Positions 950-19,149 of a stretch of DNA of 64,000 nt are shown here, in pieces. The position numbers were made by a program, and so were the translations under genes. The notes below the pieces were generated by a model. It saw nothing but the letters and a program-made list of their open reading frames with translations, did no database searches and was not told where the DNA came from. How positions within the stretch are numbered: position 1 is the stretch's first letter; every line of letters begins with the position of its first letter. Origin of the DNA: an uncultured Chloroflexia bacterium (GTDB lineage: Bacteria; Chloroflexota; Limnocylindria; Limnocylindrales; CSP1-4); contig CAVZSO010000010.1 in NCBI GenBank assembly GCA_963777975.1, forward strand, positions 118,847-182,846. The letters run 5' to 3'.

Positions 950-986
950 GGCGCCGGCAGCGTATCGCGGATGGACGGTCGATGTG

Positions 987-1835: not shown

Positions 1836-1916
1836 GGGCTGCCTCGTCTACGCTGTCGCGGTCCACTCACTGCCGCCCCACGAATGCAGCGCAGCGTACC
1901 GCGTGGAGGCCCCTCG

Positions 1917-2718
1917 ATGACCAACGAACGCGCAGAGATCGGCATCTTCGGCGGGTCGGGCTTCTACTCCTTCCTCGACGACGCGCACGAGGTCGAGATC
2001 GAGACGCCCTATGGTGCGCCGTCCGCACCGCTGACCCTGGGCTCGATCGGCGGTCGGTCGGTGGCCTTCCTGCCGCGCCACGGCAGGGCCCACCAGTTCC
2101 CGCCGCACATGATCAACTACCGGGCCAACCTGTGGGCGATGCAGGCCTGTGGCGTGCAGCCGGATCGTGGGACCGTGCGCCGTCGGCTCGCTTCGTGCCG
2201 ATGTCCATCCGGGCGAGTTCCTCATCGCCGACCAGCTGGTCGATCGGACCAACGCCCGCAAGGACACGTTCTACGACGGGCCCAAGACCACGCACGTCTC
2301 CTTCGCCGACCCGTACTGCCCGACGCTCCGCCCGATCGCCGTCCAGACCGCGCGCGACGAGGGCATCAGCGTCCACGACCGGGGCACCATGGTCGTCATC
2401 CAGGGACCGCGCTTCTCGACCCGTGCCGAGTCGCGCTGGTTCTCGTCGGCGGGCTGGTCCGTGGTCGGCATGACGCAGTACCCGGAGGCGTACCTGGCCC
2501 GCGAGCTCGAGATCTGCTTCGTCAACGTCTCGCTGGTGACCGACTACGACGCCGGCCTCGAGGACGACGATGCGCCGGTGACGCACGAGGGCGTGCTCGA
2601 GGTCTTCGACGCCAACGTCGAGAAGGTCCGCCGCCTGCTCTTCGCGCTGGTGCCGCGCATCCCGGTCGAACGAGACTGCCCCTGTGCCACGGCCCTCGGC
2701 AGCGCCAGCAGCGACTAG
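1917..2718 (+). pseudogene. mtnP: S-methyl-5'-thioadenosine phosphorylase (MTAP/MtnP) with an apparent +1 frameshift near 2157-2162
   Basis: N-terminal part [19 protein letters not shown]...[31 protein letters not shown] is in frame 0. It continues in frame +1 as [20 protein letters not shown]...[10 protein letters not shown]. One extra C in CAGCCGG joins two halves of a canonical MTAP. Confidence 0.7.
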
Positions 2719-2733
2719 CAGGTCGTCCGGCTG

Positions 2734-3378
2734 GTGACAGACGACACGAGCCTGCTGGATCTCGCCGACTGGCGTCGACGAGTGGCGGAGATGTGGTCCG
2801 AATGGCGGTCCGGCTGCCAGACGGATCCTGCGGCCGCGACGGCGAAGCTGCGCGCCACCCGCGACGTGCTGTACAGGACCCACCCACAGTCTCCACTGCC
2901 CGAGCAGGATCGGGAGCGGTTCGCCGGAGTCCCGACGTGGCCCTACGATCCGGCGTGGCGCCTGCGCGCGTCCCTCGTGCTCGATGCGGGATCCGAACCG
3001 GGGCTGCTGCCCGTGCCGTGGACGGCGCCGTCCACGGTCGCCATGCGGCTCATCGGCCACGTCGATCTGACCGTGCCGTTGGCCGGCCAGCGGCTGCCGG
3101 TCTTCTGGATCGAGGGTTATACCGGCGGTCTCTTCATCCCGTTTCGCGACCTGACGTCGGGAAACGAGACGTACGGGGCGGGCCGATATCTGATCGATAC
3201 GGCGAAGTCCGCGGACCACGGCCGCGATCCGGTGACGGAGGAGTTGGTCCTGGACTTCAACGTCGTCTACCACCCTTCCTGCGTCTACGACCCGCGATGG
3301 ACATGCCCGCTGGCGCCGCCAGGCAGTCGATTGGACGCAGCGGTCCGTGTCGGCGACCGCCTCCCGGCTCCCGCCTGA
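2734..3378 (+). CDS. DUF1684 family protein
   Basis: 214 aa; C-terminal YGAGRYLID...[19 protein letters not shown] matches the DUF1684 signature. Confidence 0.55.
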
Positions 3379-3489
3379 TCACTCGCCGACGATCACGTCA
3401 TGCCGCCCGGCGGTCCCAGGACGGCCGATGCGACACGTGACCCTCTCTCGCGTACCATCGGCCTACCCTCTCGCCACCCGGAGCCGCCC

Positions 3490-3930
3490 ATGCCCGATGC
3501 CGTTGCCGGATTGACGCCCGCCGTTCGCCGGTACCTCGACGTCCCGCCACGCCACGCCACGCTGGCCACGAGCGGCACCGACGGGACGCCCCATGTGAGC
3601 GTCATCTGGTATCGCCTCGAGGGGGACGACATCCTCGTCAACTCGCGCGTGGGGCGGCGATGGCCGCGTGAGCTGCAGGCTGATCCGCGCTGCGCCCTGA
3701 CGGTCATCCATCCGGACATCGACCACGAGCTGTACGTCGCCATCCAGGCCGAGGCCGAGGTCGTGGCGACCGGGGCCGCGGCGCTGGCCGACATCCAGGC
3801 GCTGGCGCGGCGGTACGGTGGCGATCCGGCCAAGTTCGAGGGCCAGTCGCGCATCAGCTTCCGCCTGCGGCCGACGTCGGTCGTCGTCCACGGTGCGCTC
3901 GAGCCGGCAGCGGCCGAGGTCGGCGCGTGA
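3490..3930 (+). CDS. PPOX-class F420-dependent / pyridoxamine 5'-phosphate oxidase family protein
   Basis: GLTPAVRRYLDVPPRHATLATSGTDGTPHVSVIWYRLEGDDILVNS resembles the Rv1155-like FMN/F420-binding split-barrel fold. GTGA overlap with the downstream fgd. Confidence 0.55.
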   Translation: MPDAVAGLTPAVRRYLDVPPRHATLATSGTDGTPHVSVIWYRLEGDDILVNSRVGRRWPRELQADPRCALTVIHPDIDHELYVAIQAEAEVVATGAAALADIQALARRYGGDPAKFEGQSRISFRLRPTSVVVHGALEPAAAEVGA

Positions 3931-4916
3931 GCCGGCCGAAGATCGGCTACGCGGCGATGCTCGAGCAGTTCCATCCGACCGAGCTGCTCGAGATGTGCAC
4001 GGCCGCGGAAGCGGCCGGCTTCGACGGCATCATGGCGGCCGACCACGTCCAGCCCTGGGTCCCGCAGCAGGGCCAGGCGGCCTATGTCTGGAGCTTCATG
4101 ACGGCGGCCCTGGAGCGCACGCGCGGCGACGTCGGTCCAGGCGTGACCTGTCCCAGCTTCCGCCAGCACCCGGCCATGGTGGCGCAGGCGGCCGCGACCA
4201 TGGCGGCCATGTATCCGGGCCGATTCTGGCTCGGGTTGGGGTCCGGCGAGGCGCTCAACGAGCACATCGTGGCCACGTACTGGCCCGAGGCGCCGGAGCG
4301 GATCGCGCGCATGTTCGAGGCCATCGAGATCATACGCAAGCTCTTCAGCGGCAAGGACGTCAAGCACAAGGGCGAGTACTACCGCATGGAGACGATGCGC
4401 TTGTGGACGATGCCCGCCACGACGCCGCTCATCTATGTCGCCACTGCGGGGCCGATCACGGCCAAGAAGGTGGGCGCCCTGGCGGACGGGATCATCACGG
4501 TCGGCGCTCCCGAGGGCCGGGTCCAGACCCTGATGGAGAAATGCTTCGAGGGCTGCGTCGAGGCGGGCAAGGATCCGGCGAAGTTCAAGTCGATCCTCCA
4601 GCTCCACCTGTCGTGGGCAGCGACGGACGAAGAGGCGATGGCCAACGCGTTGCTCGAGTGGCCGAACGGGGGCATGCGCTTCCCCAAGCAGGACATCCGC
4701 TCGCCGCACGACCTCGAGCAGATGGCCCGACTCGTGCGTCCCGAGGACTTCCAGGGCCGCATGCTCATCAGCTCCGATCTCGAGGCGCACCGACAGGAGA
4801 TCCAGCGCTACCTGGACGTCGGCTTCGACGAGATCTACCTCCACAACGTCGGTCGCAATCAGCTCGAATGGGCGGAGGTCTTCGGCCGTGAGGTCCTGCC
4901 AGGGTTGACCGCGTGA
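3927..4916 (+). CDS. fgd: F420-dependent glucose-6-phosphate dehydrogenase family (LLM class)
   Basis: 329 aa; AAEAAGFDGIMAADHVQPW...LGLGSGEALNEHIV aligns closely with mycobacterial Fgd1 (DHFQPW, LGVGTGEALNE). Confidence 0.7.
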   Translation: MSRPKIGYAAMLEQFHPTELLEMCTAAEAAGFDGIMAADHVQPWVPQQGQAAYVWSFMTAALERTRGDVGPGVTCPSFRQHPAMVAQAAATMAAMYPGRFWLGLGSGEALNEHIVATYWPEAPERIARMFEAIEIIRKLFSGKDVKHKGEYYRMETMRLWTMPATTPLIYVATAGPITAKKVGALADGIITVGAPEGRVQTLMEKCFEGCVEAGKDPAKFKSILQLHLSWAATDEEAMANALLEWPNGGMRFPKQDIRSPHDLEQMARLVRPEDFQGRMLISSDLEAHRQEIQRYLDVGFDEIYLHNVGRNQLEWAEVFGREVLPGLTA

Positions 4917-4959
4917 ACCGGGCCGAGCCCGGCAAACCGACCTGTATCGGCTCCCGGGC

Positions 4960-5916
4960 ATGAGCGCCCTTCGTCGCCCGCCGACGATCGGCATCAACCT
5001 CTGGCCGCAGGACGGAGCCTGGCCGGAGCTGCGCGACGCGGCCGTGGCTGCCGATCGCGCCGGCGTCGACTCGCTCTGGACGTGGGATCACCTGTACGCG
5101 ATCGAAGGCGAGCCGGACCGCCCGATCTTCGAGGCGTGGACGACGCTGGCCGCCTGGGCCGCCCTGACCGAGCGCATCGAGGTCGGGTTGCTCGTCGGGG
5201 CCAATACGTTTCGCAATCCCGGCCTGACCGCCAAGGCTGCCCTGACCATCGACCACATCAGCGGCGGTCGGGCCTGGCTCGGCCTGGGTGGTGCCTGGAA
5301 CGGGGTCGAGCATGAAGCCTTCGGCCTCGACTTCGGCAGCGGCTTCGGCGAGCGGCTGGACCGGCTCGACGAGGCGCTGGCGGCCATCACCGCGCTCTTT
5401 CGTGGAGCGTCTGTGACCTCGCCGGAGGGCGGCGCCTACGGCTTTCATGACCTCGTGGCCCGTCCGCTTCCGGTACGTGGGCCGGGGCGGCTGCCGATCC
5501 TGGTCGGTGGCGGCGGCGAGAAGAAGACGCTGCGCACGACGGCTCGGTACGCCGATGCCTGGCACGGCTTCGGCGGCGTCGAGCGCTTCAAGCGCAAGCT
5601 CGACATCCTCGAGGGCCACTGCGCCGCGGTCGGCCGCGACCTCACGGAGATCGCGTTCTCGTGCGGGCCATACGTCTGCATCCGCGACGAGCCGGCCGAA
5701 GCGCTGCGCGTCCTGAATGCCGCGCTGGCACCGTACGACAGCTCGGCCGAAGACAGCGAGGACACGTGGCTCGGCCCGCCCGAGCGGATCGCCGAGCGCT
5801 GGCGTCCCTTCGCCGACATCGGGGTCACCTTCGCCATCGCCGACCTGCCATCGCCGTACGATCGCGAGACGATCGAGCGCTGGCCAGAGGTACGAGCGCT
5901 CATGGCAGGCGCATGA
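4960..5916 (+). CDS. LLM-class F420-dependent oxidoreductase
   Basis: 318 aa; IGINLWPQDG, VDSLWTWDHL, AWLGLGGAWN; ATGA overlap with cofD start. Confidence 0.65.
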   Translation: MSALRRPPTIGINLWPQDGAWPELRDAAVAADRAGVDSLWTWDHLYAIEGEPDRPIFEAWTTLAAWAALTERIEVGLLVGANTFRNPGLTAKAALTIDHISGGRAWLGLGGAWNGVEHEAFGLDFGSGFGERLDRLDEALAAITALFRGASVTSPEGGAYGFHDLVARPLPVRGPGRLPILVGGGGEKKTLRTTARYADAWHGFGGVERFKRKLDILEGHCAAVGRDLTEIAFSCGPYVCIRDEPAEALRVLNAALAPYDSSAEDSEDTWLGPPERIAERWRPFADIGVTFAIADLPSPYDRETIERWPEVRALMAGA

Positions 5917-6872
5917 CCGATCGGGTCGTGATGCTGGCCGGCGGCTACGGCGGCGCCAAGCTGAGCCACGGCGTGGCCATGCTGGCAGAGGCACCGGGGT
6001 CGGATATCGAGCTCTCGGTCATCGTCAACACCGGCGACGACCTCGAGCTCCACGGCCTGCTCGTCTGCCCGGACCTCGACACCGTCATGTACACATTGGC
6101 CGGCCTGGCCAACGACGCCACCGGCTGGGGGGTGCGCGACGAGACCTGGTCGGCGCGAGCGATGCTCGAGCGCTATGGGCAGGAGACGTGGTTCGGCCTC
6201 GGCGACCGGGACATCGCGACCCACCTCCTGCGCTCGAAGCGGATGCGCGCCGGCGTCCGGCTGACCGAGGTCGAGGCCGAGCTGACACACGCCCTGGGCA
6301 TCCACGCCCAGCTGCTGCCCATGACCGACGACATCGTGCGCACCAAGCTGCGGACCGACGACGGCTGGCTCTCGTTCCAGGACTACTTCGTCCAGCGCCA
6401 TCATGCCGACGACGTCCACGAGGTGCACTTCCACGGCATCGAGCACGCGCAGGCGACGACCGAGGCGCTCGAAGCCATCGCCCACGCCGACCGGATCCTG
6501 ATCGCGCCGTCGAACCCGTTCGTCAGCGTCGGCACCATCCTGGCCGTGCCTGGCCTGCTCGACGCGCTGCTCGACGCCGAGGCGCCGATCATCGCCGTCA
6601 GCCCGCTCATCGGCGGCGCCGCCGTGCGCGGCCCGGCCGACCGGATGTTCGTGACCCTTGGCGGCGAGGCGTCGGCCAGCGGCGTCGCGCGTCACTACGT
6701 GGAGCGCTACCCGGGCCTCCTCGATGCCATCATCATCGACGAGGTCGACGCCCACGAGGCGGACGCCGTCCGTGCCCTCGGCATCGCCGTCGACGTGGCA
6801 CGCACGCTCATGCTCTCGAACGACGACCGACGTGAGGTGGCTCTGGCAGCGCTCGCCCTGGAGACGCGTTGA
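5913..6872 (+). CDS. cofD: 2-phospho-L-lactate transferase (F420 biosynthesis, CofD/FbiA)
   Basis: MTDRVVMLAGGYGGAKLSHG...VIVNTGDDLELHGLLVCPDLDTVMYTLAGL...NPFVSVGTILAVPG are typical CofD motifs. Confidence 0.8.
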   Translation: MTDRVVMLAGGYGGAKLSHGVAMLAEAPGSDIELSVIVNTGDDLELHGLLVCPDLDTVMYTLAGLANDATGWGVRDETWSARAMLERYGQETWFGLGDRDIATHLLRSKRMRAGVRLTEVEAELTHALGIHAQLLPMTDDIVRTKLRTDDGWLSFQDYFVQRHHADDVHEVHFHGIEHAQATTEALEAIAHADRILIAPSNPFVSVGTILAVPGLLDALLDAEAPIIAVSPLIGGAAVRGPADRMFVTLGGEASASGVARHYVERYPGLLDAIIIDEVDAHEADAVRALGIAVDVARTLMLSNDDRREVALAALALETR

Positions 6873-6971
6873 TGGGCTCGGCGGTCTCCTTCGTCCGCCT
6901 CTCGGCTGGAGGGGCCGAGCGGTCGGCTCGTAACCCTCCACGGATCGACGAGGTCGGCGCATCATCCGTCG

Positions 6972-9596
6972 GTGCCGCACCAGCTGCCGACGGGGACCCT
7001 GACCTTTCTGTTCACCGACATCGAGGGGTCCACGCGCCTGCTGCAGCGCCTCGGAGCTCGCTACGCGGACGTGCTCGAACGACACGGCGCCATCGTTCGT
7101 GACGCGCTGACGGCACATGGCGGCGTCGAGGTCGGCACCGAGGGCGATGGCTTCTTCGCCGTCTTCCCGATCGCCTCGCAGGCCGTCGCGGCCGCCGTCA
7201 CCGCTCAACGTGACATGGCCGCGGAGGGCTGGCCGGACGACTCGACGGTGCGAGTCCGGATGGGCCTGCATACCGGCGAGGGACGCCTGGGCGGCGACAG
7301 CTACGCCGGCCTGGACGTCCATCGCGCCGCCCGGATCGCCGGCCTGGCGCAGGGAGGCCAGGTGCTCCTGTCCGCGGCGACGCGGTCGCTCGTCGAGGAC
7401 GTGCTGCCGGACGGGGTGTCCCTGCGCGACCTGGGTGCCCATCAGCTCAAGGACTTCGACCAGCCAGAACGCCTGGTCCAGCTGGTCATCGAGGGCCTTG
7501 CCAACGACTTCCCGGCTCTGGCCTCGCTCGATGTGCGGGTCGCCCTGCCGAGAGAGGCGACAAGCTTCGTCGGGCGCCGCCAGGAGATCGACGAGGCGAC
7601 GATGCTGCTGACGACCAGCCGCCTGTTGACCCTGACCGGCCCAGGAGGCACTGGCAAGACGCGGCTCGCGATCAGGATCGCGGCCGAGGTGCGGGACGGA
7701 TTCCGAGACGGCGTGCAGTTCGTGGACCTGTCGGCTCTTGCCGACGCGACATTGGTGGGCCCGACCATCGCTCGCAGCCTCGGCCTTCGCGAAGACGCCT
7801 CGCGATCGATGACCGAGTCGCTCAAGGACCACCTCAGACCGCGCCACATGCTGCTGGTCCTCGACAACCTCGAGCGACTGCTGCCGGCAGCCGGCCTCAT
7901 CGAAGAGCTGCTGGCGGACTCCGCTGGACTGCGTGTCCTCGCCACCAGCCGCAGCGCCCTGCACGTCTATGGGGAGCAGGAGTTCCCGGTCCCGCCGCTC
8001 GCCCTGCCGGCCGCCGACGAGCGGCTCGACGAGGACGCGTTGGCACGGTTTGCCGCCATCGCGCTGTTCATCGACCGCGCACAGGCGGTGAAGCCCGCAT
8101 TCGTGCTGTCGCCGGAGAACGCGGCAGCCGTGGCCGATATCTGCCTCCGGCTCGACGGTCTGCCGCTCGCAATCGAGCTGGTGGCCAGCCGGGTCCGGAT
8201 GCTCGAACCGGCGGAGATCCTCATCCGGCTCTTGGATCGGCTGCCGGTCATGGGCGCCGGCGGCAGCGGCGTGCCGGCTCGCCAGCGAACCCTGCAGGGT
8301 GCGATCGACTGGAGCTACGACCTGCTGACGGGACAGGAGCAGGCCCTCTTCGCTCGACTGGCCGTGTTCTCGGGCGGTTGCACCCTGGAGTCCGCAGATG
8401 AGGTCTGCAATCCGGACGGCGAGCTGGGGCTCGACACCTTCGACGGGATCGCCTCCCTGGTCGATCGCAGCCTGCTGCGGCAGGCAGCCGACTCCGGCCG
8501 ATCCCGGTTCCAGATGCTCCAGACGATCCGCGACTACGGGCTGGATCGATTGACGATCGAGGATTCGATGACGACCATCGGACGTCGACACTCTGCGCAT
8601 TTCCGAGCTCTCGGCGAGACCGCCGAGGCGCACTTCCTGGGACCGGACCGCGGCGAGTGGCTCGACCGTTTCGAGGCCGAGGCCGACAACGTCCGGGGCA
8701 CGCTGGGACGATCATCGGAGTCCGGCGACTCCGAGACCGGCCTGCGGCTGGCGTCGGCGATCTGGCGCTTCTGGCTGCAGCGCGGGTACCTGCGCGAGGG
8801 TCGTACCTGGCTCGAGACGCTCCTCGCGACGGAGCCAGATTGTTCGCCGGCGATCCTGGCCAAGGCGTACACGGCACTCGGCGGATTGACCTACTGGCTG
8901 TCGGATGCCGAAGCCACCGAGCTCGCCTACGAGGGCGCGGTACGGCTGCGCCGCGGTTCGGGCGACCGCGGCGCCGAGGCAGCGGCGATGTACGACCTGG
9001 CGTTCGTGCCCGTCATGCGCGGTGACCACGACGAAGCGCGCCGGCGGCTCGAGGCGAGCCTTGAGCTGGCCAAGGTGGCGGGGCGTCCCGATGTCGTCGC
9101 GCTGGCCCAGCACTCCTTGGGCCTCGTGATGACGGTGGGCGGCGATCCTCGGTCCGGGCTCGCATACCAGGAGGCCTCGCTGGCCTACTTCCGGGCCTCG
9201 GGCGACCGCTTCCAGACCGCTTGGACGCTGTCCGGCATCGGTCTCGCCTTCGCCTTCCTGGGTCGGCGCGCGGAGGCGCGGGCGAGATACATGGAGAGCC
9301 TGAGGCTGCACGCCGAAGCCAGGAACCTGCCCGGCATCGGAGCCGGCCTGGAGGTGTTGGCGATGCTCGAGTCGACGGGCGGCCACCACGCGCCTGCCGT
9401 CCAGCTGGCGGCGGCGGTCGAGGCGCTGCGTGCGACGACCGGCGCTTCGGCACCCTTGATGTTCACGCACGCGATCGATGTCGTGGGCCCGGCAACGCGC
9501 GCCCTGGGAGCCGCCGCGGTGGAGGCGGCACAGCGGGAGGGCCGGCGGATGACCATCGATGAGGTGATCGAATACGCCGCCGGCCTCCACGATTAG
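6972..9596 (+). CDS. adenylate/guanylate cyclase domain - AAA/NB-ARC ATPase - TPR repeat signalling protein (no C-terminal LuxR HTH)
   Basis: GTG start. N-terminal class III cyclase motif LTFLFTDIEGSTRL...GLHTGE, then Walker A GPGGTGKTRLA, then a TPR-like C-terminal half. 874 aa. Confidence 0.7.
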   Translation: MPHQLPTGTLTFLFTDIEGSTRLLQRLGARYADVLERHGAIVRDALTAHGGVEVGTEGDGFFAVFPIASQAVAAAVTAQRDMAAEGWPDDSTVRVRMGLHTGEGRLGGDSYAGLDVHRAARIAGLAQGGQVLLSAATRSLVEDVLPDGVSLRDLGAHQLKDFDQPERLVQLVIEGLANDFPALASLDVRVALPREATSFVGRRQEIDEATMLLTTSRLLTLTGPGGTGKTRLAIRIAAEVRDGFRDGVQFVDLSALADATLVGPTIARSLGLREDASRSMTESLKDHLRPRHMLLVLDNLERLLPAAGLIEELLADSAGLRVLATSRSALHVYGEQEFPVPPLALPAADERLDEDALARFAAIALFIDRAQAVKPAFVLSPENAAAVADICLRLDGLPLAIELVASRVRMLEPAEILIRLLDRLPVMGAGGSGVPARQRTLQGAIDWSYDLLTGQEQALFARLAVFSGGCTLESADEVCNPDGELGLDTFDGIASLVDRSLLRQAADSGRSRFQMLQTIRDYGLDRLTIEDSMTTIGRRHSAHFRALGETAEAHFLGPDRGEWLDRFEAEADNVRGTLGRSSESGDSETGLRLASAIWRFWLQRGYLREGRTWLETLLATEPDCSPAILAKAYTALGGLTYWLSDAEATELAYEGAVRLRRGSGDRGAEAAAMYDLAFVPVMRGDHDEARRRLEASLELAKVAGRPDVVALAQHSLGLVMTVGGDPRSGLAYQEASLAYFRASGDRFQTAWTLSGIGLAFAFLGRRAEARARYMESLRLHAEARNLPGIGAGLEVLAMLESTGGHHAPAVQLAAAVEALRATTGASAPLMFTHAIDVVGPATRALGAAAVEAAQREGRRMTIDEVIEYAAGLHD

Positions 9597-9659
9597 CCGC
9601 TGCACGAGTCGCGTGAGGGCCGGCGACATCCGACCGCGAGCGTCGCCTACCATCCGTCC

Positions 9660-10349
9660 GTGGCGCCCACCAGACCTGCCGACCTCAGCCAGCTCCACGT
9701 CATCGTGCCGGTCCGCGCGCTCGACGACGGTAAGAAGCGCCTCAGCCCGGTGCTGGGCGAGCAGCAACGAGCGCTGCTCGTAGCCGGCCTCCTCGAACGC
9801 ACGCTTGAGGTCCTTCGGGCGTGGGGCGGGGCGGCGGCGATCCATGTCGTGAGCCCCGACCCTGCCGTCATGCCGCTCGCGCGCTCGGCCGGGGCTCGGC
9901 CGATCCTCCAGGCGGACGAAGGGCTCAACGAGGGCATCGGCGCGGCGCGCGCGATCGCCGTCGGCGGCGGCGCCACGGCCATCCTGATCCTGCCCGCCGA
10001 CCTGCCCGTCCTGGAAGCCGACGCCCTCGACGCGCTCGTCGACGCGGCGGATGCCGCGCTCGCGGCGGGCGGCGGTCGGCCGGTCGTCGTCGTCGCGCCG
10101 GCAGATGCGCGAAGCGGCACGAATGGGCTCCTGCTCTCCCCACCCGACGCGATCGCGCCCGGCTTCGGGCCAGCCAGCCTGGAGCGCCACCTTCGGGCCG
10201 CGGAGGCCGCCGGGGCCTCGACGCAGCTCGTGGTCGATGCCGCTCTTGGCTTCGACCTCGACACGCCCGACGACCTGACGCTGCTGGGGCCAGCACGCCT
10301 GGCGAAGCTGATGCGGCCGACCCCACCACGCGCCTCGACGGTCCCATGA
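9660..10349 (+). CDS. cofC: 2-phospho-L-lactate / phosphoenolpyruvate guanylyltransferase (CofC/FbiD)
   Basis: GTG start; HVIVPVRALDDGKKRL, TNGLLLSPPDAIAPGFGPASLERH typical of CofC. Confidence 0.7.
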   Translation: MAPTRPADLSQLHVIVPVRALDDGKKRLSPVLGEQQRALLVAGLLERTLEVLRAWGGAAAIHVVSPDPAVMPLARSAGARPILQADEGLNEGIGAARAIAVGGGATAILILPADLPVLEADALDALVDAADAALAAGGGRPVVVVAPADARSGTNGLLLSPPDAIAPGFGPASLERHLRAAEAAGASTQLVVDAALGFDLDTPDDLTLLGPARLAKLMRPTPPRASTVP

Positions 10350-10362
10350 GCCGACGGTCGGG

Positions 10363-11157
10363 GTGCCCATAGCACTGATGCATCGCCTGCTCGCTGTCGC
10401 GCTGCCGCCGCTGCCCGAGGTCCGGCCAGGCGACGACCTGCCGGGGCTGGTCGCGGCGGCGTGGCGACTCGCCATCGCCGACGAACCGGAACTGACGCCG
10501 GCCAGCGGTGACGTGCTCGTCGTGACCCAGAAGGTCGTCTCCAAGGCGGAGGGCGCGGTCGTCGATCTGCGCACGGTCACGCCCCGCGCCGAAGCGGTCG
10601 CCTTCGCCGAGCGCTGGGAGCGCGACCCGCGGCAGGTCGAGGTCGTGCTGCGTGAGGCCGCGGCCATCGTGCGCATGGAGCGTGGCGTGATCATCACCCG
10701 CACGCGCCACGGCTTCGTCTGCGCCAACGGTGGCGTCGATGCCTCGAATGTCGCGCCAGACACCGTGACGATCCTGCCCGAGGATCCGGACCGATCGGCC
10801 CGAGCGATCATGGCGCGCCTGGCCGATCTGCTCGATCTGCCGCCGGAGCGCACCCCGGCCATCGTGATCAGCGACTCGTTCGGCCGGCCGTGGCGCTGGG
10901 GCATCGTCGACGTCGCCCTTGGCGTGGCGGGCTTCGGCCCGCTCGACGACCAACGCGGCCGACCGGACACGGCGGGTCGCGTGATGCGCTCGACGGTCGT
11001 GGCGGTCGCCGACGAGATCGCTTCCGCGGCAGAGCTCGCGTCGGGCAAGACCAGCGGGCGACCGGTCGTCCTCGTCCGGGGCGCGGGCCTGCCGGCCGGT
11101 GACGGGTCGATCCAGCGCGAGTTGGTCATGCCCACCGAGAACGACCTCTTTCCCTGA
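10363..11157 (+). CDS. cofE: coenzyme F420-0:L-glutamate ligase (CofE, FbiB N-domain type)
   Basis: VLVVTQKVVSKAEG, RTRHGFVCANGGVDASN are CofE motifs; alternative ATG start at 10378. Confidence 0.7.
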   Translation: MPIALMHRLLAVALPPLPEVRPGDDLPGLVAAAWRLAIADEPELTPASGDVLVVTQKVVSKAEGAVVDLRTVTPRAEAVAFAERWERDPRQVEVVLREAAAIVRMERGVIITRTRHGFVCANGGVDASNVAPDTVTILPEDPDRSARAIMARLADLLDLPPERTPAIVISDSFGRPWRWGIVDVALGVAGFGPLDDQRGRPDTAGRVMRSTVVAVADEIASAAELASGKTSGRPVVLVRGAGLPAGDGSIQRELVMPTENDLFP

Positions 11158-11203
11158 CGACCCCTTCCCCGAGACGACGGCCGCGCCTACGATTTCGCGC
11201 GTG

Positions 11204-11446
11204 ATGCGTGGCACCACCCTGCGCCGCTGGGCCCCCGCATCGGCGTGGGGCATCTGGCTCATCGGCGCCCTGCTCCTGGCGGCCGTCCTGCTGCTCGGGG
11301 CAGCGCCGGGGTCGACCGCCCTGGGCGAGCTCAACCTGTTCGTGGTCGTGCGCATCGTCGCGCCACATCGCCGACCGCATGGCACACTACGCCGCAGGGT
11401 CGCCGCCGCGGAAATACTCCCAGGGAGTATGCAGGTTGCGTGCTAG
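11204..11446 (+). CDS. possible small single-TM membrane protein (hypothetical)
   Basis: 80-aa ORF with GC3-rich codons over the first ~50 codons and TM segment GIWLIGALLLAAVLLLGAAPG. Lies in the largest intergenic gap (cofE-trxB). Weak. Confidence 0.25.
   Translation: MRGTTLRRWAPASAWGIWLIGALLLAAVLLLGAAPGSTALGELNLFVVVRIVAPHRRPHGTLRRRVAAAEILPGSMQVAC
11410..11437 (+). promoter_or_regulatory. candidate ECF SigH/SigR-type promoter (GGAAAT-N19-GTT) upstream of trxB, enclosing a perfect 17-bp palindrome ATACTCCCAGGGAGTAT (11413-11429)
   Basis: Seen directly. trxB is a classic SigR/SigH regulon member in actinobacteria. Confidence 0.3.
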
Positions 11447-11455
11447 GATAGGTGC

Positions 11456-12574
11456 ATGGTCAACGAATCCAAGGGCTTTACCGGCATCCAGATGATCGAC
11501 GCGGGGGCAGCCGATGCGGTCCCGGCGACGAAGCCGGTGAGCGCCTTTCCGACCATCGCGCAGGTCGCCGAGCCCAGCCTCCAGCCGGCCGAGCCGGCGG
11601 CGGTCGAGGCAGGTGAGTTCGGCGGCGGCGTCAGCAAGGTCGTCATCGTCGGCTCCGGCCCCGCCGGCCTGACGGCGGCCATCTACGCGGCGCGCGCCAA
11701 CCTCGAGCCGCTGGTCATCGCCGGCCTCGTGCCCGGCGGTCAGCTGATGATCACCAGCGACGTCGAGAACTACCCAGGCTTCCCGGACGGCATCCAGGGA
11801 CCCGAGCTGATGGACCTCTTTCGGAAACAGGCCGCGCGCTTCGGGACGCGCTTCGTCGACAAGGACCTGGAGCGGGTCGACTTCAGCCAGCGGCCCTTCA
11901 GACTCTGGGCCGGCGGCATCGAGCACCGCGCCGAATCCGTCATCGTCGCCACCGGGGCGTCGGCCATCTGGCTGGGCCTGGAGAGCGAGACGCGGCTGCG
12001 CGGTCGGGGCGTCAGCGCCTGCGCGACCTGTGACGGCTTCTTCTTCCGCGACAAGCACGTCGGCGTCGTCGGAGGCGGCGACTCCGCGCTCGAAGAGGCG
12101 ACCTTCCTGACCAAGTTCGCCAGGCGGGTCACGATGATCCATCGCCGCGATGAGTTTCGTGGCTCCAAGATCATGCGCGACCGCGCACTCAACGACCCCA
12201 AGATCGACGTCCGCTGGAACAGCGAGGTCGCCGAGGTCATCGGCGACGACGTGGTCAGCGGCCTGCGCCTGCGCGACACCGCGACCGGCCAGGAGCACGA
12301 GGAGCCGATGGACGGGCTCTTCGTCGCCATCGGGCATCAGCCCAATACCGACGTCTTCCGCGACTGGCTCGAGGTCGACCCGAAGGGCTACCTCGTCGTG
12401 CACGACCAGACCGGCACCAAGGTCGAGGGGGTCTTCGTCGCCGGCGACGTCCACGATCATCGCTACCGGCAGGCCGTCACCGCCGCGGGAGACGGCTGTC
12501 GGGCGGCCATCGATGCCGAGCGCTGGCTCGAATCGGTCGGCCTGGCCGAGGCGGCGACCTCGACCGCCTGGTGA
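11456..12574 (+). CDS. trxB: thioredoxin-disulfide reductase with ~55-aa N-terminal extension
   Basis: VIVGSGPAGLTAAIYAARANLEP, CATCDGFFFRDK (redox-active CxxC), GGGDSALEEATFL, HRRDEFR. Alternative ATG at 11492. Confidence 0.8.
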   Translation: MVNESKGFTGIQMIDAGAADAVPATKPVSAFPTIAQVAEPSLQPAEPAAVEAGEFGGGVSKVVIVGSGPAGLTAAIYAARANLEPLVIAGLVPGGQLMITSDVENYPGFPDGIQGPELMDLFRKQAARFGTRFVDKDLERVDFSQRPFRLWAGGIEHRAESVIVATGASAIWLGLESETRLRGRGVSACATCDGFFFRDKHVGVVGGGDSALEEATFLTKFARRVTMIHRRDEFRGSKIMRDRALNDPKIDVRWNSEVAEVIGDDVVSGLRLRDTATGQEHEEPMDGLFVAIGHQPNTDVFRDWLEVDPKGYLVVHDQTGTKVEGVFVAGDVHDHRYRQAVTAAGDGCRAAIDAERWLESVGLAEAATSTAW

Positions 12575-14725
12575 CGGCGCCCTCGATCGGCGCCCTGCCG
12601 AGCCCGCGCCAGGTCATCTTCCGGGTCGAGGCGCTGGCCGACCCACGCATCCGACTCTTCCTGACCAGCGCGACGCTGCTCTTCGTCGAGCTGCTGCTCA
12701 TCCGCTGGATCCCGGCCAACGTCCGTTACGTCGGCTTCTTCAGCAACTTCCTGCTGATGGCCAGCTTCCTGGGCATCGGCCTCGGCATCCTCCTGGGGCG
12801 GAAGGGCTGGCGGCTGCCGTTCTCGCCGTTCACCCTGCTCCTCTTCGTCGTCGTGGCCCTCGTCGTCACGGCCGAGCTCAACGTCCAGATCAACTCCCAG
12901 GACGAGCTCTTCTTCGGCCTCGCCGAGAACACCGCCGCGGACGCCAACTTCATCGTCCTGCCCCTCGTCGTCGGCCTGGTGGCGGCCGTCATGGCGTCAC
13001 TCGCGTTGCCACTCGGGCCGCTCTTCCGGGCGATGCCGCCCCTGCGACGCCTACGCCATCGACATCGTCGGCTCGATGGTCGGCATCATCGGCTTCACGG
13101 CACTCTCGGCGGCCGGCACGAACCCGGTCGTCTGGTTCAGCGTGCTCGCCGTCCTCGTCCTGCTGATCGCGCTGGGCGGGGGCATCACGCCCTGGTCGTT
13201 CGTGGCCGGCGCGGCCGATGCTGGGCGTCATCTACGCCGTCGTCATCCAGGCCGGCAGCGGGGACATCTGGTCGCCCTACTATCGGATCACGACCTACCC
13301 GCTCGCGGATGGCACGCTGAACGTCAACGTCAACGGCATCCCGCACCAGGCCCTCCATCCGGTCGATCGAGCCGAAGGAACCGTTCTACGACCAGGTCTA
13401 CGAGTGGTTCCCGGGTCGCACGTACGACGACGTGCTCATCGTCGGCGCCGGCAGCGGCTCGGACGTGGCCATCGCGCTCGATCGCGGCGCCAAGCACGTG
13501 GATGCGGTCGAGATCGACCCCGCCATCCAGCGCATCGGCGTCGAGCATCACCCCGATCACCCCTACGACGACCCGCGGGTGACGCGGATCGTCAACGACG
13601 GCCGGGCGTTCCTGCGCGACGACGGACAAGCAGTACGACCTGGTCGTCTTCGCGCTGCCCGACTCGCTGACCCTGGTCAGCACCGCAGCCAACATCCGGC
13701 TGGAGTCGTTCCTGTTCACCGAGGAGGCCTTCGCGAGCGTGCGCGACCACCTCAAGCCAGGCGGCATCTTCGTGCTCTACAACTACTACCGCGAGCCATG
13801 GCTGGTGGCCAAGCTGCAGGGGATGCTGACGGACGCCTTCGGCTCGCCTCCGCTCGTGCGCACCTATTCCAACGTCCAGGCGGCCCTCGCCGCGGGACCG
13901 GGCGTGGCGGCTGTCGGCGGCGTGCCACCGGGCGACGGCGTCAGCGAGGTGCCCGACCCGGGCCAGCCGGAGCCCCGGCCGGCGACCGATGACTGGCCGT
14001 TCCTGTACCTGCGCACGGGCTTCATCGCGCCCTACTACCTCGTCGCCCTGGCCATCATCCTCGGCTTCGCGCTGGTCGCGGTGCTCGGGGCGGCGCGCGT
14101 GACGGGGACCCCCATCCGACGCTTCAGCCCGCACTTCTTCGTCCTCGGCACGGCCTTCCTGCTGCTCGAGACCCGCAGCCTGGTCAGCTTCAGCCTGCTC
14201 TTCGGCACGACCTGGATCGTCAACGCGCTGGCCTTCTTCGCCATCCTGGCCAGCGTCCTGGTGGCCATCCTCATCAACGCCCGCTTCCCCATCCGCCACC
14301 CGAACGTCTTCTACATCGGGCTCTTCGTGGCCCTCGGGGTCGCCTTCCTGCTGCCGCCCGAGCAGCTGCTCATCGACCCGCCCTGGCTGCGCTACGTCGT
14401 GGCCGCCGCGCTCGCCTTCACGCCCGTCTTCTTCGCCAACCTCGTCTTCAGCCACTCGTTCCGCGACACGACCACGGCCGACATGGCCTTCGCCAGCAAC
14501 CTGCTGGGGGCGATGGTCGGCGGCGCCCTGGAGTACCTGGCGCTGCTGACCGGCTACCGCGCCCTGCTGCCGCTGGTCGCCGTCCTGTACCTGCTGGCCT
14601 GGCTCTTCGCCACCCGCTGGCGTCGCCTGGCCGACCGCGACCTGGAGGCGGGCACGGCCGACCAGGCCGGCATCGACCACGCCGGCACGACCGAGCCGGG
14701 CACCGTGCTGGAGGGGGCGACCTGA
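12571..14725 (+). pseudogene. spermidine-synthase-like membrane protein (N-terminal polytopic domain + SpeE methyltransferase-fold + C-terminal TM domain) broken by four +1 frameshifts
   Basis: Five successive ORFs (12571, 13076, 13218, 13432, 13739) each step +1 in frame. Concatenated they read ...LGPLFRAMPP|CDAYAIDIVGSMVGIIGF...FVAGAA|MLGVIYAVVIQAGSGDIW...HPVD|IEPKEPFYDQVYEWFPGRTYDDVLIVGAGSGSDVAIALDRGAKHVDAVEIDP...AFLRD|TDKQYDLVVFALPDS...VLYNYYREPW... Junctions are near 13041, 13217, 13366 and 13625. Confidence 0.65.
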
Positions 14726-16860
14726 TGGGCTTCGGGCCGCGAGGCGGCGGGCGAAGCGCGGCCTACAGCGCGGGCGACGATCCCGCCGCGCGGGTGCCGA
14801 AAGAGCGGCGCGGCGCGACCATGCGCCGCATCGCGGCTTTCTTCCGACCCTACCGCTGGCAGGTGCTGGTCGTCCTTGGCGCCATCCTGCTGACGAGCAT
14901 GCTGGGGCTGATCAATCCGCTCCTGCTCAAGGCGCTCATCGACAGCGCCATCCCGTCGGGCAGTTGGCCGCAGCTCAACCTCTTCGTGGCGCTGATGATC
15001 ATCGTGCCCATCGTCAGCGGCCTGATCGGCGTCGGTCAGTCGTACTGGAACAACGTCGTCGGGCAGCATGTCATGCAGGACCTGCGCAACGCGCTCTACG
15101 CACATCTCCAGAAGATGCCGCTGCGCTTCTTCGCCGAGACGCGCACCGGGGAGATCCAGAGCCGCCTGGCCAACGATGTCGGTGGCGTCCAGAGCGTGGT
15201 CACGGACACGGCCAGCTCCGTCGTCAGCAACATGGTCATCGCGGTGACGACGATCATCGTCATGCTCTTCATCTCCTGGCAGCTGACGCTGTTGTCGCTG
15301 ATCGTGCTGCCATTCTTCATGTGGCTGACCTACCGCGTGGGCAAGATCCGGCGGAGCATCAGCACCGAGACGCAGGAGACGATGGCGGACGTGAGCGCCA
15401 TCACCCAGGAGACGCTCAGCGTGAGCGGCATCCTGCTCTCCAAGACCTTCGGTCAGCAGACCGCCTCGGTCGAGCGTTTCCGGCTCGCCAACGCCAAGCT
15501 GGCCGCGCTGCAGATCCGCCAGAGCATGGTCGGACGCTGGTTCTTCATGATCGTGGGCACCATCTTCAGCATCATGCCGGCCTTCGTGTACTGGCTGGCC
15601 GGCGCGCTCATCTTCGCCGGCGTCTCGAACGCGCCGACGATCGGCGACATCGTGGCCTTCACGACGCTCCAGAGCCGCCTCTTCTTCCCTCTCGGCCAGC
15701 TGCTCAACGTCCATGTCGAGGTCCAGGGCGCGCTGGCGCTCTTCGACCGCATCTTCGCCTACCTCGACCTGGAGCCCGAGATCAAGGACGCGGCCGACGC
15801 CCTCGAGCTCGACCCGTCGAGCGTCCGCGGCGACGTACGCTATCGAGGCGTCAGCTTCCGATATCGGACGACCGCACCGGCGGCCATCCAGCCCGAGGCC
15901 GAGGCGGCAGACCAGACCATGGAGGCCGACGAGGACGTCGAGGAGGCGGTGGCAGCGGCAGAAGCCGGCGCCGGTGCCGCCGTCGAGGCCGAGGCGGAGT
16001 CGGCACGAGCGACCGGGGTGGCCCTGGCGGTCGCGCTCGAGGACCCGATCTCGCCCGAAGACGAGGCCGCCGCCGCCGACGTCGAGCCCATCGCGCCCTT
16101 CGGCATCGAAGGCGTCGATTTCGAGGCCCGTGCAGGACAGCTGGTGGCGCTGGTCGGCCCATCGGGGGCGGGCAAGACGACGACGACCTACTTGCTGCCG
16201 CGCCTCTATGAGGTCGACGCCGGCGCCATCGAGCTTGACGGGCACGACATCCGGACGCTGACGCTCGAGTCGCTCGGCCGGGTCATCGGCTTCGTGACCC
16301 AGGAGACATACCTCTTCCACGCTTCGGTCCGCGACAACCTCCTCTATGCCCGGCCCGATGCCAGCCAGGCCGAGCTGGAGGCCGCCGGGCGGGCGGCAGC
16401 CATCCACGATCGGATCATGGAGTTGCCCGAGGGCTACGACACCATCGTCGGCGAGCGCGGTTACAAGCTCTCCGGCGGGGAGAAACAGCGCGTCGCTATC
16501 GCTCGGGTGCTGCTCAAGGATCCACGGGTGCTCATCCTCGACGAGGCGACGTCGGCACTCGACACCGTCAGCGAGCGCCTCATCCAGGCGGCTCTCGAGC
16601 GGGCCGAAGCCGGACGCACGACCCTGGCCATCGCCCACCGGCTGTCGACCATCCTGCGCGCCGACCTGATCCTGGTCTTCGAAGGCGGCCACATCGTCGA
16701 GCGCGGCACGCACCACGAGCTGCTCGGCCTGGACGGCCTCTATGCACGGCTGTATCACGAGCAATTCCTGACCGCGGCGGCGGTCGCAGCCGAGGCTGAT
16801 CCGGCTGGCGAGGCGCCCGATATCGGACGCCAGGCGTCGCTGCCTCTCGGACAAGGTTGA
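14725..16860 (+). CDS. ABC exporter, fused permease/ATP-binding (MsbA/ABCB type) with acidic low-complexity insertion in the NBD
   Basis: 6-TM exporter domain then Walker A GPSGAGKTT, signature LSGGEKQR, Walker B LILDEAT. The likely true start is ATG 14821 (MRRIAAFFRPYRW). A ~75-aa Ala/Glu/Asp-rich insert lies between VSFRY and GIEGVDFEA. Confidence 0.8.
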   Translation: MGFGPRGGGRSAAYSAGDDPAARVPKERRGATMRRIAAFFRPYRWQVLVVLGAILLTSMLGLINPLLLKALIDSAIPSGSWPQLNLFVALMIIVPIVSGLIGVGQSYWNNVVGQHVMQDLRNALYAHLQKMPLRFFAETRTGEIQSRLANDVGGVQSVVTDTASSVVSNMVIAVTTIIVMLFISWQLTLLSLIVLPFFMWLTYRVGKIRRSISTETQETMADVSAITQETLSVSGILLSKTFGQQTASVERFRLANAKLAALQIRQSMVGRWFFMIVGTIFSIMPAFVYWLAGALIFAGVSNAPTIGDIVAFTTLQSRLFFPLGQLLNVHVEVQGALALFDRIFAYLDLEPEIKDAADALELDPSSVRGDVRYRGVSFRYRTTAPAAIQPEAEAADQTMEADEDVEEAVAAAEAGAGAAVEAEAESARATGVALAVALEDPISPEDEAAAADVEPIAPFGIEGVDFEARAGQLVALVGPSGAGKTTTTYLLPRLYEVDAGAIELDGHDIRTLTLESLGRVIGFVTQETYLFHASVRDNLLYARPDASQAELEAAGRAAAIHDRIMELPEGYDTIVGERGYKLSGGEKQRVAIARVLLKDPRVLILDEATSALDTVSERLIQAALERAEAGRTTLAIAHRLSTILRADLILVFEGGHIVERGTHHELLGLDGLYARLYHEQFLTAAAVAAEADPAGEAPDIGRQASLPLGQG

Positions 16861-18140: not shown

Positions 18141-19149
18141 ATGGATACCAGGGGCGCGGCGACGCCAGCCGACTCGGGTCCGGGATCGGTCGCCATCCGG
18201 ACCCAGGATCTGACCAAGTCATATGGCGAGGTGACGGCCGTCGACGGCCTCGACCTCGAGGTCCGCTTCGGCGAGGTGTTCGGTCTCCTGGGCCCCAACG
18301 GAGCGGGCAAGACGACGACCATCCTGATGCTCCTGGGATTGACCGAGCGCGACGAGGGCACGGCCGAGGTCCTGGGCCTCGACCCTGCCCGCCACCCGCT
18401 CGAGGTCAAGCGCCGCGTCGGCTACCTGCCGGACGACGTCGGCTTCTACTCGGGCATGACCGGCCGCGAGAACCTGCGCTACACCGCGCGACTCAATCGG
18501 ATGTCGTCGGCGTCGACCGAGCAGCGCATCGATGCGCTTGCTCGAGCGAGTCGGGCTGGTCGAGGCGGCGGACCGGGCGGTCGAGACCTACTCGCGCGGT
18601 ATGCGACAGCGACTCGGCCTCGCGGACGTCCTGCTGCCCGAGCCTCGCATCGCGATCCTCGACGAGCCGACGGCCGCCATCGACCCGGTCGGTGCCAACG
18701 AGCTGCTCGGGCTCATCCGCAACCTGGCCGACGAGGAGGGTGTGGCGGTCCTGCTCTCGAGCCACCTCCTCCTTCAGGTCGAGCGCGTCTGCAGCCGGGT
18801 CGGCATCTTCGTGCGCGGCCGCATGGTCGAGCAGGGCACGGTCGCCGAGCTGGCCGGGCGGATGCCGACCGAGCAGATCCGGATCGAGGTCGGCTGTGAC
18901 GGCGACCCGGCGGCAACACGTCGGGCGCTGTCGGAGATGGACGGCCTCCACGTCCTCGAGCAGGACCGCGCTGATCCGCGCATCTGGGTCGTCGCCAGCG
19001 ACGGCGATCGCCGGCGTGAGCTTGCCGCCGGGCTGTCCGATCGCGGCCTCGCCATCTTCCACCTTCGCAGCACCGGCGTCGGCCTCGAGGAGGTCTATCG
19101 GCGCTACTTCCATCAGGCCGAGGAGGACGCCGATGACTCCGCAGCCTGA
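18141..19149 (+). pseudogene. ABC transporter ATP-binding protein (ABC-2/CcmA type) with an apparent +1 frameshift near 18537
   Basis: Frame 0: [41 protein letters not shown]...STEQRIDA. Frame +1 continues [29 protein letters not shown]...[10 protein letters not shown]. The junction gcgCttgctc carries one extra base. Confidence 0.7.

Follow-up and report, generated by a model that had tools for sequence, protein, structure and literature searches.

Single-base indels break genes in unpolished long-read assemblies, and accounts of Nanopore consensus errors emphasise indels in homopolymers (PMC9262707). In the collapsed PacBio assembly of T. brucei Lister 427, indels likewise arose where nearby allelic variants disturbed the read alignment; these errors appeared as truncated ORFs or apparent frameshifts, and the ORFs were full-length after the alleles had been separated (PMC8445201). 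Bacterial frameshift pseudogenes are a further known case of ORFs interrupted by 1-nt indels. For the MFD metagenome-assembled genomes, which are metaFlye assemblies with one Medaka round and without short-read polishing, the authors of the catalogue tie Nanopore-associated errors to lower coverage (PMC12313526).

The locus described here lies in a 64-kb stretch of DNA (the window), in which a gene for a membrane protein with a spermidine synthase (SpeE)-like domain is interrupted by four frameshifts. Homopolymer indels sit in base runs, whereas the window, from a 70% GC genome, holds insertions only, and they avoid runs. Compared with bacterial frameshift pseudogenes, the gene is under unrelaxed selection and carries insertions only, none of them in a run, and its type of lesion follows the sequencing technology. 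The T. brucei errors come from PacBio sequencing of a diploid eukaryote, while the present case would involve a mixed population of bacteria, or the cross-mapping of paralogues, in a presumed Nanopore-only metagenome. The pattern of two alleles in tandem proposed below is our own reading and is not stated in the T. brucei paper (PMC8445201).

Results

The SpeE-like gene begins with a GTG at 12571 that overlaps the trxB stop codon and ends with a TGA at 14723-14725 that overlaps the ATG of the ABC transporter gene (Table 1), both as proposed by the sequence-only reading. A relative of this transporter gene lies directly downstream of the SpeE-like gene in 27 of 63 related loci. In the ORF list and three-frame translation, the gene appears as five pieces whose frames (position mod 3) are 1, 2, 0, 1, and 2. 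The GC3 frame plot switches in step with these frames, and GC3 stays at 0.85-1.0 in all five pieces. Deletion of the four extra bases yielded 2151 nt (716 codons plus stop) free of internal stops. The tblastn search of the 64-kb window with the repaired protein returned five collinear pieces in frames 1, 2, 3, 1, and 2, and no second copy of the gene.

Table 1. Coordinates of the SpeE-like gene, its pieces, its extra bases, and the flanking genes in the 64-kb window.
Feature	Position	Strand	Basis or content
SpeE-like membrane gene, whole	12571..14725	+	ORF list, three-frame translation, tblastn, homologues; 716 codons after repair
Piece 1, frame 1, aa 1-158	12571..13045	+	Opening part of N-terminal membrane domain
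Piece 2, frame 2, aa 159-215	13047..13216	+	Membrane helices
Piece 3, frame 0, aa 216-265	13218..13366	+	Final N-terminal helix and beta-hairpin subdomain of the SpeE-like fold
Piece 4, frame 1, aa 266-348	13369..13617	+	Rossmann part with VLIVGAGSGSD and AVEIDP
Piece 5, frame 2, aa 349-716	13619..14725	+	TDKQYDLVVFALPDS; remaining SpeE-like domain (to ~13912), linker, C-terminal bundle
Extra base 1	13046	+	ctgc[G]acgcc; relatives CAC (L081, L082, L001), CGC (L003), CGA (L002 copy 1); parses c{g,a}c
Extra base 2	13217	+	gcggcc[G]atg; relatives GCC (L081, L082, L003), GCG (L001, L002 copy 1); parses gc{c,g}, both Ala
Extra base 3	13367..13368, either base	+	gtcga[T/C]gag; relatives GAT (L081, L003), GAC (L082, both L002 copies); parses ga{t,c}, both Asp
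Extra base 4	13618	+	ctgcgc[G]acg; relatives CGC (L081, L082, L003, L002 copy 2), CGG (L001, L002 copy 1); parses cg{c,g}, both Arg
trxB, thioredoxin-reductase-type gene, upstream	11456..12574	+	Intact; Pfam Pyr_redox_2 on the L081 orthologue; selection control
ABC transporter gene, downstream	14725..16860	+	Intact

The window contains nine frameshifts, all of which (9/9) are +1 insertions, with no -1 event. Four of them fall in the SpeE-like gene at successive distances of 171, 151, and 250 nt (572 nt in total), and every other gene in the window has one at most. The remaining five interrupt an MTA-phosphorylase-like gene (PNP_UDP_1), an ABC ATPase gene (ABC_tran), argR (ArgR), ppk1 (PPK1), and a histidine phosphatase gene (His_Phos_1); each of the five repaired proteins gave a Pfam match spanning the break. 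Close to the 5' end of argR, a frame-HMM with stiff penalties missed the shift, which alignment and a laxer model with a stop-codon filter recovered; the detector may still miss shifts very near gene ends. Outside the SpeE-like gene, five frameshifts in 58 kb of coding sequence correspond to 1 per 11.6 kb, about half of the background of roughly 1 per 6 kb given by the sequence-only reading. With a uniform rate, the probability of at least four shifts in the SpeE-like gene is 4e-5 at 1 per 11.6 kb and 5e-4 at 1 per 6 kb. A simulation of eight events, in which the argR shift was not yet included, gave a probability of 3e-4 for any four of them falling within 572 nt. The clustering in this gene exceeds chance at a uniform rate, and the earlier claim to that effect stands.

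The repaired protein matched more than 6,500 unbroken homologues of ~700 aa each, with best identities of 95%, 93%, and 89%. The match is single and contiguous over ~715 aa, as anticipated from the sequence, and 46 of 46 aligned homologues run continuously through all four insertion sites, so none is naturally split there. The dN/dS of the gene is 0.131 between the window and its closest relative (L081), 0.125 between the window and L082, and 0.117 between the two relatives, with values of 0.10-0.15 for the trxB control. Within codons 140-360, it amounts to 0.155-0.165 for every pair. The substitutions private to the window are 15 synonymous and 3 non-synonymous. A search for signs of decay in the gene (stop codons after repair, deletions, loss of GC3) found none. 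The gene is under unrelaxed selection, and its interpretation as a relic is not supported.

These data bear on the possibility of a very recent true pseudogene, in which the four insertions would be present in the DNA of the cell, perhaps after the gain or loss of a tandem paralogue. The frameshifts are present in the given sequence, and their cluster stands above the background rate of the window. The gene is tandemly duplicated in three related loci (L002, L058, and L075), which could make one copy dispensable, and copy 1 of L002 is likewise frameshifted. On the other hand, the window is without a second copy, four insertions with zero deletions or stops lie on a branch of 18 substitutions, and the same kind of lesion occurs in the five other genes of the window, ppk1 and argR among them. 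Real slippage mutations usually occur in base runs, where none of these insertions lies. We regard this reading as improbable.

For comparison, an identical frameshift detector was applied to 82 related loci, 16 of them from Nanopore-only MFD assemblies and 66 with short-read-style contig names. Over the 300.5 kb of the MFD loci, it called 38 +1 events (1 per 7.9 kb), whereas the 797 kb of the short-read loci gave 2 (1 per 399 kb), a rate ratio of 50 (P = 2e-19). The rate in the window is 1 per 6.7 kb. For -1 calls, the rates of 1 per 30 kb and 1 per 57 kb, respectively, did not differ significantly (P = 0.09). Within the clade, the excess of +1 events is a feature of Nanopore-only assemblies alone, and a lesion type about 50 times commoner in these than in their short-read counterparts argues further against a pseudogene. 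The +1 counts per MFD locus were over-dispersed (dispersion index 2.8), with ten events in L075 and six in L048. Clusters of +1 events are normal for the process behind the Nanopore-only shifts; the cluster in the window is tighter than those in the control loci.

DNA alignment to the intact relatives L081, L082, L001, and L003 and to both L002 copies revealed that all four breaks are single-base insertions in the window. The closest relatives, at most 93.7% identical to the window at the nucleotide level (L081 93.7%, L082 91%), are without any of the four. A strain-specific DNA pattern across site 1, tried both in its original form and with the extra base removed, had no match in metagenome_contigs, and look-up of the exact trxB and ABC transporter proteins returned neither the contig of the window nor a sequence of the same strain. 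Repeats, IS ends, and slippery sequences were sought around the four shifts, and nothing beyond weak codon-bias repeats was found.

The four shifts share one direction, which would suit programmed recoding, i.e., ribosomal +1 frameshifting or transcriptional slippage restoring the full-length protein. The four sites, however, have four different contexts without a slippery run, homologues are encoded in a single frame, and the examined relatives are without these shifts. Four events per mRNA would moreover give a negligible yield, and we consider recoding the most far-fetched of the explanations.

The inserted bases avoid runs and fit a two-allele pattern. By chance, 45-51% of insertions would be expected to extend a run, yet none of the eight placeable ones in the window does (P = 0.004-0.009). 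Seven of the eight parse as two synonymous alleles in tandem (34-39% expected at random, P = 0.003-0.008), and all four doublets in the SpeE-like gene use bases found in relatives at the same column (21-25% expected, P = 0.002-0.004). The 12 insertions located in the MFD control loci behaved similarly, with 11 outside runs (P = 0.003) and 9 forming allele doublets (P = 4e-4); one of them is a +1 event in the L002 copy of the SpeE-like gene (ggc{t,a}cg). The idea of allele doublets is post hoc, its P values, from 1e-2 to 4e-4, are modest, and the placement of an insertion between two adjacent bases is partly ambiguous. Codon position alone is uninformative, as ~2/3 of random insertions also adjoin a third codon position; this test was replaced by two others, on synonymous doublets and on the alleles of relatives, both evaluated against simulated nulls.

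Generic low-coverage errors of long reads would be random insertions in a thinly covered stretch, unrelated to polymorphism. The +1 excess of Nanopore-only assemblies, the spread over the window, and the over-dispersion between loci fit this explanation equally well, and so does the link to lower coverage drawn by the MFD authors (PMC12313526). Run extension is then expected in 45-51% of cases, however, and is seen in 0/8 in the window and 1/12 in the controls. Neither does generic error predict that the inserted bases match alleles of relatives, mostly as synonymous alternatives. We hold it to be a possible but rather unlikely cause.

The errors are specific to Nanopore assemblies, and several insertions create C-G-A or C-G (13046, 13217, and 13618, as well as sites in L041, L042, and L075), which would suit a methylation motif of the organism at which basecalling fails systematically, with the error passed into the consensus. 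A search for a common motif, such as a methylation site, around the ~20 located insertion contexts found none, and the match to alleles of relatives would be left unexplained. Methylation artefacts are mainly substitutions. This origin appears highly improbable.

The part of the gene that holds the insertions is variable. The identity of the window to L002 copy 1 is 75-82% over 12718-13366, as opposed to 96-98% in the 3' third, and the short-read contigs L081 and L082 both terminate inside the SpeE-like gene. At 12996-13032, the window has alleles seen elsewhere only in L002 copy 2. We considered whether the gene is a mosaic of the L002 tandem copies with shifts at the joints. Sliding identity was uniformly L081-like, and alleles specific to copy 2 are shared only in that short segment, so the mosaic was rejected as a general explanation.

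The architecture proposed from the sequence, a polytopic domain at the N terminus, then a SpeE fold, and a domain of several helices at the C terminus, was borne out by an AlphaFold model and Foldseek. In the model of a homologue (P0002; pLDDT 78.7, pTM 0.83), a Rossmann domain comes after strands at 237-260. The top 50 Foldseek matches in the PDB were all aminopropyltransferases; SpeE (1uir, 3anx, 3o4f, 6o65, and 1inl) is the sole fold match, with a target TM-score of 0.5-0.6. For the SpeE aminopropyltransferase family (PF01564 / TIGR00417), the central domain matched PF01564 with 34.9 bits (gathering score 22.9), whereas the NCBIfam SpeE equivalogs gave 47, 38, and 33 bits where 260, 250, and 472, respectively, are required. 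The window protein retains the beta-hairpin and Rossmann layout of SpeE, the ribose-binding E-I-D, and the N-D-G motif. Unlike SpeE, it has ~7 helices before the domain and ~7 after it, the latter at ~14027-14614 in piece 5. The central domain probably binds SAM or dcSAM.

Canonical SpeE catalysis relies on the acidic residue of GGG(D/E)G and on the first Asp of D-(S/L)-(T/S)-D-P, as in the T. maritima and human structures. In the alignment to 1uir, GGGEG stands opposite GAGSG, and IIDLTDP opposite VFALPDS. In 46 of 46 homologues, GGG(D/E)G is replaced by GAGSG and D-x-x-D-P by A-L-P-D-S, with residues A291, S293, A359, and D362 fully or almost fully invariant. Since both catalytic acidic residues are replaced family-wide, the protein is unlikely to be a canonical spermidine synthase. 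The fused MFS/spermidine synthases (NF037959), whose name some homologue entries bear, also join a membrane domain to a SpeE-like domain; the score for this family is 24.1 bits, below the cut-off of 40, and the window family adds a second, C-terminal membrane domain. A literature search on the membrane SpeE-like family returned nothing relevant. The sequence-only reading had assigned the family to actinobacteria, but every named close homologue and locus belongs to Chloroflexota / Candidatus Limnocylindria, and the organism itself is a member of Chloroflexota (Limnocylindria) rather than of the actinobacteria.

Discussion

With a probability of about 0.65, the SpeE-like gene is intact in the organism, and the four +1 shifts are consensus errors of a long-read metagenome assembly unpolished by accurate reads. 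The sequence-only reading had offered either a relic overlaid with errors or a low-quality stretch. A low-quality stretch is favored by our results; a dN/dS of 0.13 and the predominance of synonymous changes among the private substitutions speak against the relic.

As to the mechanism, the sampled population would have two alleles at certain positions, contributed by co-occurring strains or by a diverged tandem paralogue. The consensus step may write both alleles consecutively rather than picking one, which would add one base and shift the frame. We infer both that the window derives from an assembly of the Nanopore-only type and how exactly the polisher fails. The clustering of the four errors would reflect where they lie: no other part of the gene is as variable, and the gene itself tends to be duplicated and to break assemblies.

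That the insertions are real, i.e., that a conserved gene was very recently knocked out by four independent non-run insertions within 572 nt in one Limnocylindria population, seems to us very improbable. If they were, one would suspect a localised process of insertional mutation; alternatively, one copy would be decaying following the gain or loss of a tandem duplication.

As the frameshifts most likely come from extra bases of an unpolished assembly, the finding is an ordinary one. A single-base insertion disrupts a gene roughly every 7-8 kb, both in the window and in 16 public loci from Nanopore-only MAGs of this high-GC clade. Such errors would inflate pseudogene counts and split gene calls. 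The insertions lie outside homopolymers and resemble two alleles in tandem; they could escape filters aimed at homopolymers, and they are likely densest in the most polymorphic genes.

The frameshifts have little biological import, and annotation should regard the gene as intact and use its repaired 716-aa product. For the family, which has more than 6,500 members in Chloroflexota, the common label "spermidine synthase" is doubtful because the two catalytic acidic residues are absent.

A single reading frame broken by four extra bases

The SpeE-like gene encodes one protein in five pieces, which occupy frames 1, 2, 0, 1, and 2 (position mod 3). The GC3 frame plot switched at approximately 13040, 13200, 13340, and 13620, and GC3 was 0.85–1.0 inside each piece. 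To place the breaks, the DNA was aligned with intact relatives from public MAGs (loci L081, L082, L001, and L003, and both gene copies of L002), the identity of the window gene being 93.7% to L081 and 91% to L082. Each frame switch corresponded to one extra base in the window, as judged against relatives that are at most 93.7% identical at the nucleotide level, none of them from the same strain. Deletion of the four bases gave 716 codons with no internal stop. A tblastn search of the window with the repaired protein located the gene once only, in five collinear pieces. The sequence-only reading had proposed four +1 shifts in one gene, and the frames, GC3 switches, alignment, repaired ORF, and tblastn pieces bear this out. 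Its expected contiguous match of ~715 residues was also found: more than 6,500 homologues of the repaired protein are each a single ORF of ~700–720 residues, the best showing 95%, 93%, and 89% identity.

Coordinates of the SpeE-like gene, the +1 insertions, and neighboring features (window positions unless a locus is named)
Feature	Position	Strand	Detail
SpeE-like gene	12571–14725	+	frame broken four times
Extra base 1	13046	+	ctgc[G]acgcc, alignment to relatives
Extra base 2	13217	+	gcggcc[G]atg, alignment to relatives
Extra base 3	13367/8	+	gtcga[T/C]gag, alignment to relatives
Extra base 4	13618	+	ctgcgc[G]acg, alignment to relatives
+1 insertion	2156		PNP_UDP_1 (MTA-phosphorylase-like) gene
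+1 insertion	18536–18540		ABC ATPase
+1 insertion	24593–24596		argR, near 5' end
+1 insertion	48031/2		ppk1
+1 insertion	~57740		His_Phos_1 phosphatase
L002 tandem copies	L002:7826–9989 and 10001–12106		SpeE-like gene
F420-related cluster	~970–11150		synteny with L081:21–7509
874-aa ORF	6972–9596	+	between cofD-like and cofC-like genes
Single-base length differences	11159, 3418, 10373		intergenic

Selection on the repaired gene

A true relic was one of the explanations first proposed for the breaks. The dN/dS values of the window gene were 0.131 against L081 and 0.125 against L082, compared with 0.117 between these two intact orthologues and 0.10–0.15 for the adjoining trxB. Codons 140–360, which contain all four breaks, gave 0.155–0.165 in all three pairs. 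The window branch is short, with 18 private substitutions, 15 of them synonymous, and the repaired gene showed no stop codons, no deletions, and undiminished codon bias. These results argue against a relic. In a real pseudogene, four independent insertions on a branch still under purifying selection would be very unlikely, and we consider a real, very recent fourfold inactivation improbable.

Frameshifts elsewhere and the assembly control

Frameshifts were detected with a frame-tracking HMM and a stop-codon filter, and were checked by alignments to relatives. The 60 kb of coding sequence in the window contained nine, all of them +1; neither the HMM nor the alignments revealed a −1 shift there. 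Five other genes are broken by one insertion each, in keeping with the initial count of at most one shift in any other gene, and after removal of one base each gave a full-length Pfam match spanning the break. The rate outside the SpeE-like gene was 1 per 11.6 kb, about half of the ~1 per 6 kb estimated earlier, and four events in one gene are therefore still less compatible with uniformity. At a uniform rate, their probability was 4e-5 for the SpeE-like gene and ~2e-3 for any gene, and a simulation with eight events gave P = 3e-4 for any four of the eight falling within 572 nt; the shifts are indeed too many for uniform error. Single-base length differences from the relatives were also seen in intergenic DNA, such as ctgac[G]acccc, which immediately follows the cofE-like stop codon; for these, we could not tell errors from real variation.

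A technology control gave the strongest evidence for an origin of the extra bases in the assembly method, and not in the cells. It comprised 82 related loci, 16 from "MFD" MAGs and 66 taken as short-read assemblies on the basis of their short-read-assembler-type contig names. The MFD MAGs are Nanopore-only metaFlye assemblies with one Medaka polish and no short-read polishing (PMC12313526). With the detector used on the window, the MFD loci had 38 +1 events in 300.5 kb of coding sequence (1 per 7.9 kb) versus two in 797 kb (1 per 399 kb) for the short-read-named loci, a 50-fold difference (P = 2e-19). The −1 calls, 1 per 30 kb versus 1 per 57 kb, did not differ significantly (P = 0.09), and are probably mostly detector noise. 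The window rate of 1 per 6.7 kb was in line with the Nanopore-only group; the window's own sequencing technology is what we infer here. The MFD loci with +1 frameshifts were L002, L036, L041, L042, L048, L053, L058, L059, L069, L070, L072, L075, and L077. The events in the Nanopore-only group were clumped (dispersion index 2.8): L075 had ten and L048 six. A local cluster is thus typical of this process.

Apparent allele-pair signature of the insertions

Nanopore errors are commonly discussed as homopolymer indels (PMC9262707), but the window insertions are not of that type. None of the eight placeable insertions extended a base run (45–51% expected at random, P = 0.004–0.009). Seven of the eight can be parsed as two synonymous alternatives in tandem (34–39% expected, P = 0.003–0.008), namely gt{g,c}, gc{c,g}, ga{t,c}, cg{c,g}, ct{t,g}, gt{c,g}, and {c,a}gg or gc{a,c}. 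In the eighth, c{g,a}c, the alternatives are His and Arg, each of which is found in relatives. For all four pairs in the SpeE-like gene, both bases occur at the same column among the six relatives, one being the L081 allele and the other that of L002 copy 1 (21–25% expected by chance, P = 0.002–0.004). The ppk1 site conforms to this pattern among nine metagenome relatives. Among the 12 locatable insertions in the Nanopore-only loci, 11 were outside runs (P = 0.003) and nine were allele pairs (P = 4e-4). The allele-pair model, whose P values are modest, was devised post hoc, after inspection of the data. Since the inserted bases resemble selection-filtered variants, population polymorphism is indicated as their source. 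A precedent is the collapsed long-read assembly of T. brucei, in which neighboring allelic variants led to misaligned reads and indel errors appearing as frameshifts (PMC8445201).

Position of the cluster and gene neighborhood

The most variable part of the gene among the relatives surrounds the first three insertions and extends upstream of them; L002 copy 1 was 75–82% identical to the window over 12718–13366 versus 96–98% in the 3' third. The SpeE-like gene is duplicated in tandem in L002, L058, and L075. The two copies of L002 share 88% identity overall, and in the 3' ~600 nt each is equally near the window (97–98%). Copy 1 is itself interrupted by a +1 insertion, at the equivalent of window 13460, and this is also an allele pair (ggc{t,a}cg). 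Just 5' of the first insertion, at 12996–13032, the window contains several alleles otherwise present only in L002 copy 2, e.g., catggcgtcactcgc, which could reflect gene conversion or a mixed consensus. The short-read contigs of L081 (DATBSC010000212.1) and L082 (DATKIL010000055.1) terminate within the 3' part of the gene, L081 being divergent in its final ~140 nt; these ends suggest a repeat or strain branch in the assembly graphs. From the variable stretch, the tandem duplication, the contig ends, and the copy-2 alleles, we infer why the cluster lies here. A heterogeneous population at the locus, or paralogue reads mapped onto it, would create many two-allele sites, and more such sites would offer more chances of consensus error.

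The immediate upstream neighbor is a thioredoxin-reductase-type gene in 10 of 67 related loci, and the immediate downstream neighbor is an ABC exporter in 27 of 63. The L081 orthologues of the upstream F420-related cluster encode luciferase-like oxidoreductases, PNPOx, CofD, CofC, and F420 ligase. The 874-aa ORF within this region is missing from L081 and L002, whose corresponding gap measures <100 nt. Its N-terminus (FLFTDIEGST...) may resemble a class III nucleotide cyclase, and putative ATPase and repeat regions come after it.

Architecture and motifs of the protein family

PF01564 was the sole Pfam match (residues 286–413, 34.9 bits, cut-off 22.9); the SpeE equivalogs in NCBIfam scored far under their cut-offs, as did NF037959 ("fused MFS/spermidine synthase"). 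An AlphaFold model of P0002, an intact homologue with 89% identity (pLDDT 78.7, pTM 0.83), showed N-terminal helices (residues 19–226), a beta-hairpin and Rossmann domain (237–446), a disordered linker, and seven C-terminal helices (485–680). The hydropathy scan was consistent with this layout, and Foldseek against the PDB retrieved aminopropyltransferases only, matching the central domain. The polytopic N-domain, SpeE fold, and C-terminal 7-TM domain read from the sequence are thus backed by the model. The family had been called actinobacterial; instead, all named matches and nearly all related loci belong to Chloroflexota, mostly Candidatus Limnocylindria.

SpeE structures point to two residues as central to aminopropyl transfer: the acidic one in GGG(D/E)G and the first Asp in D-x-x-D-P. 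GGGEG and IIDLTDP of Thermus SpeE (1uir) align to GAGSG and VFALPDS in the window protein, replacements that are invariant or almost so among 46 homologues. The protein family alignment (window 13432–13470 and 13648–13668) has GAGSGSD for GGG(D/E)G and ALPDS for D-x-x-D-P family-wide. Judging from sequence and model, the protein has a SpeE-like fold with predicted SAM or dcSAM binding, and is probably not a canonical spermidine synthase, because the acidic residue and the first Asp are replaced. The family is often labelled "spermidine synthase", and these replacements make an aminopropyltransferase annotation doubtful.

The proposal of a low-quality stretch is supported in substance. The breaks are most aptly classed as an assembly artefact, and the gene, which encodes a membrane-anchored SpeE-like protein of Limnocylindria, as intact. 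The biological interest is low, and the technical pattern may interest users of Nanopore-only MAGs.
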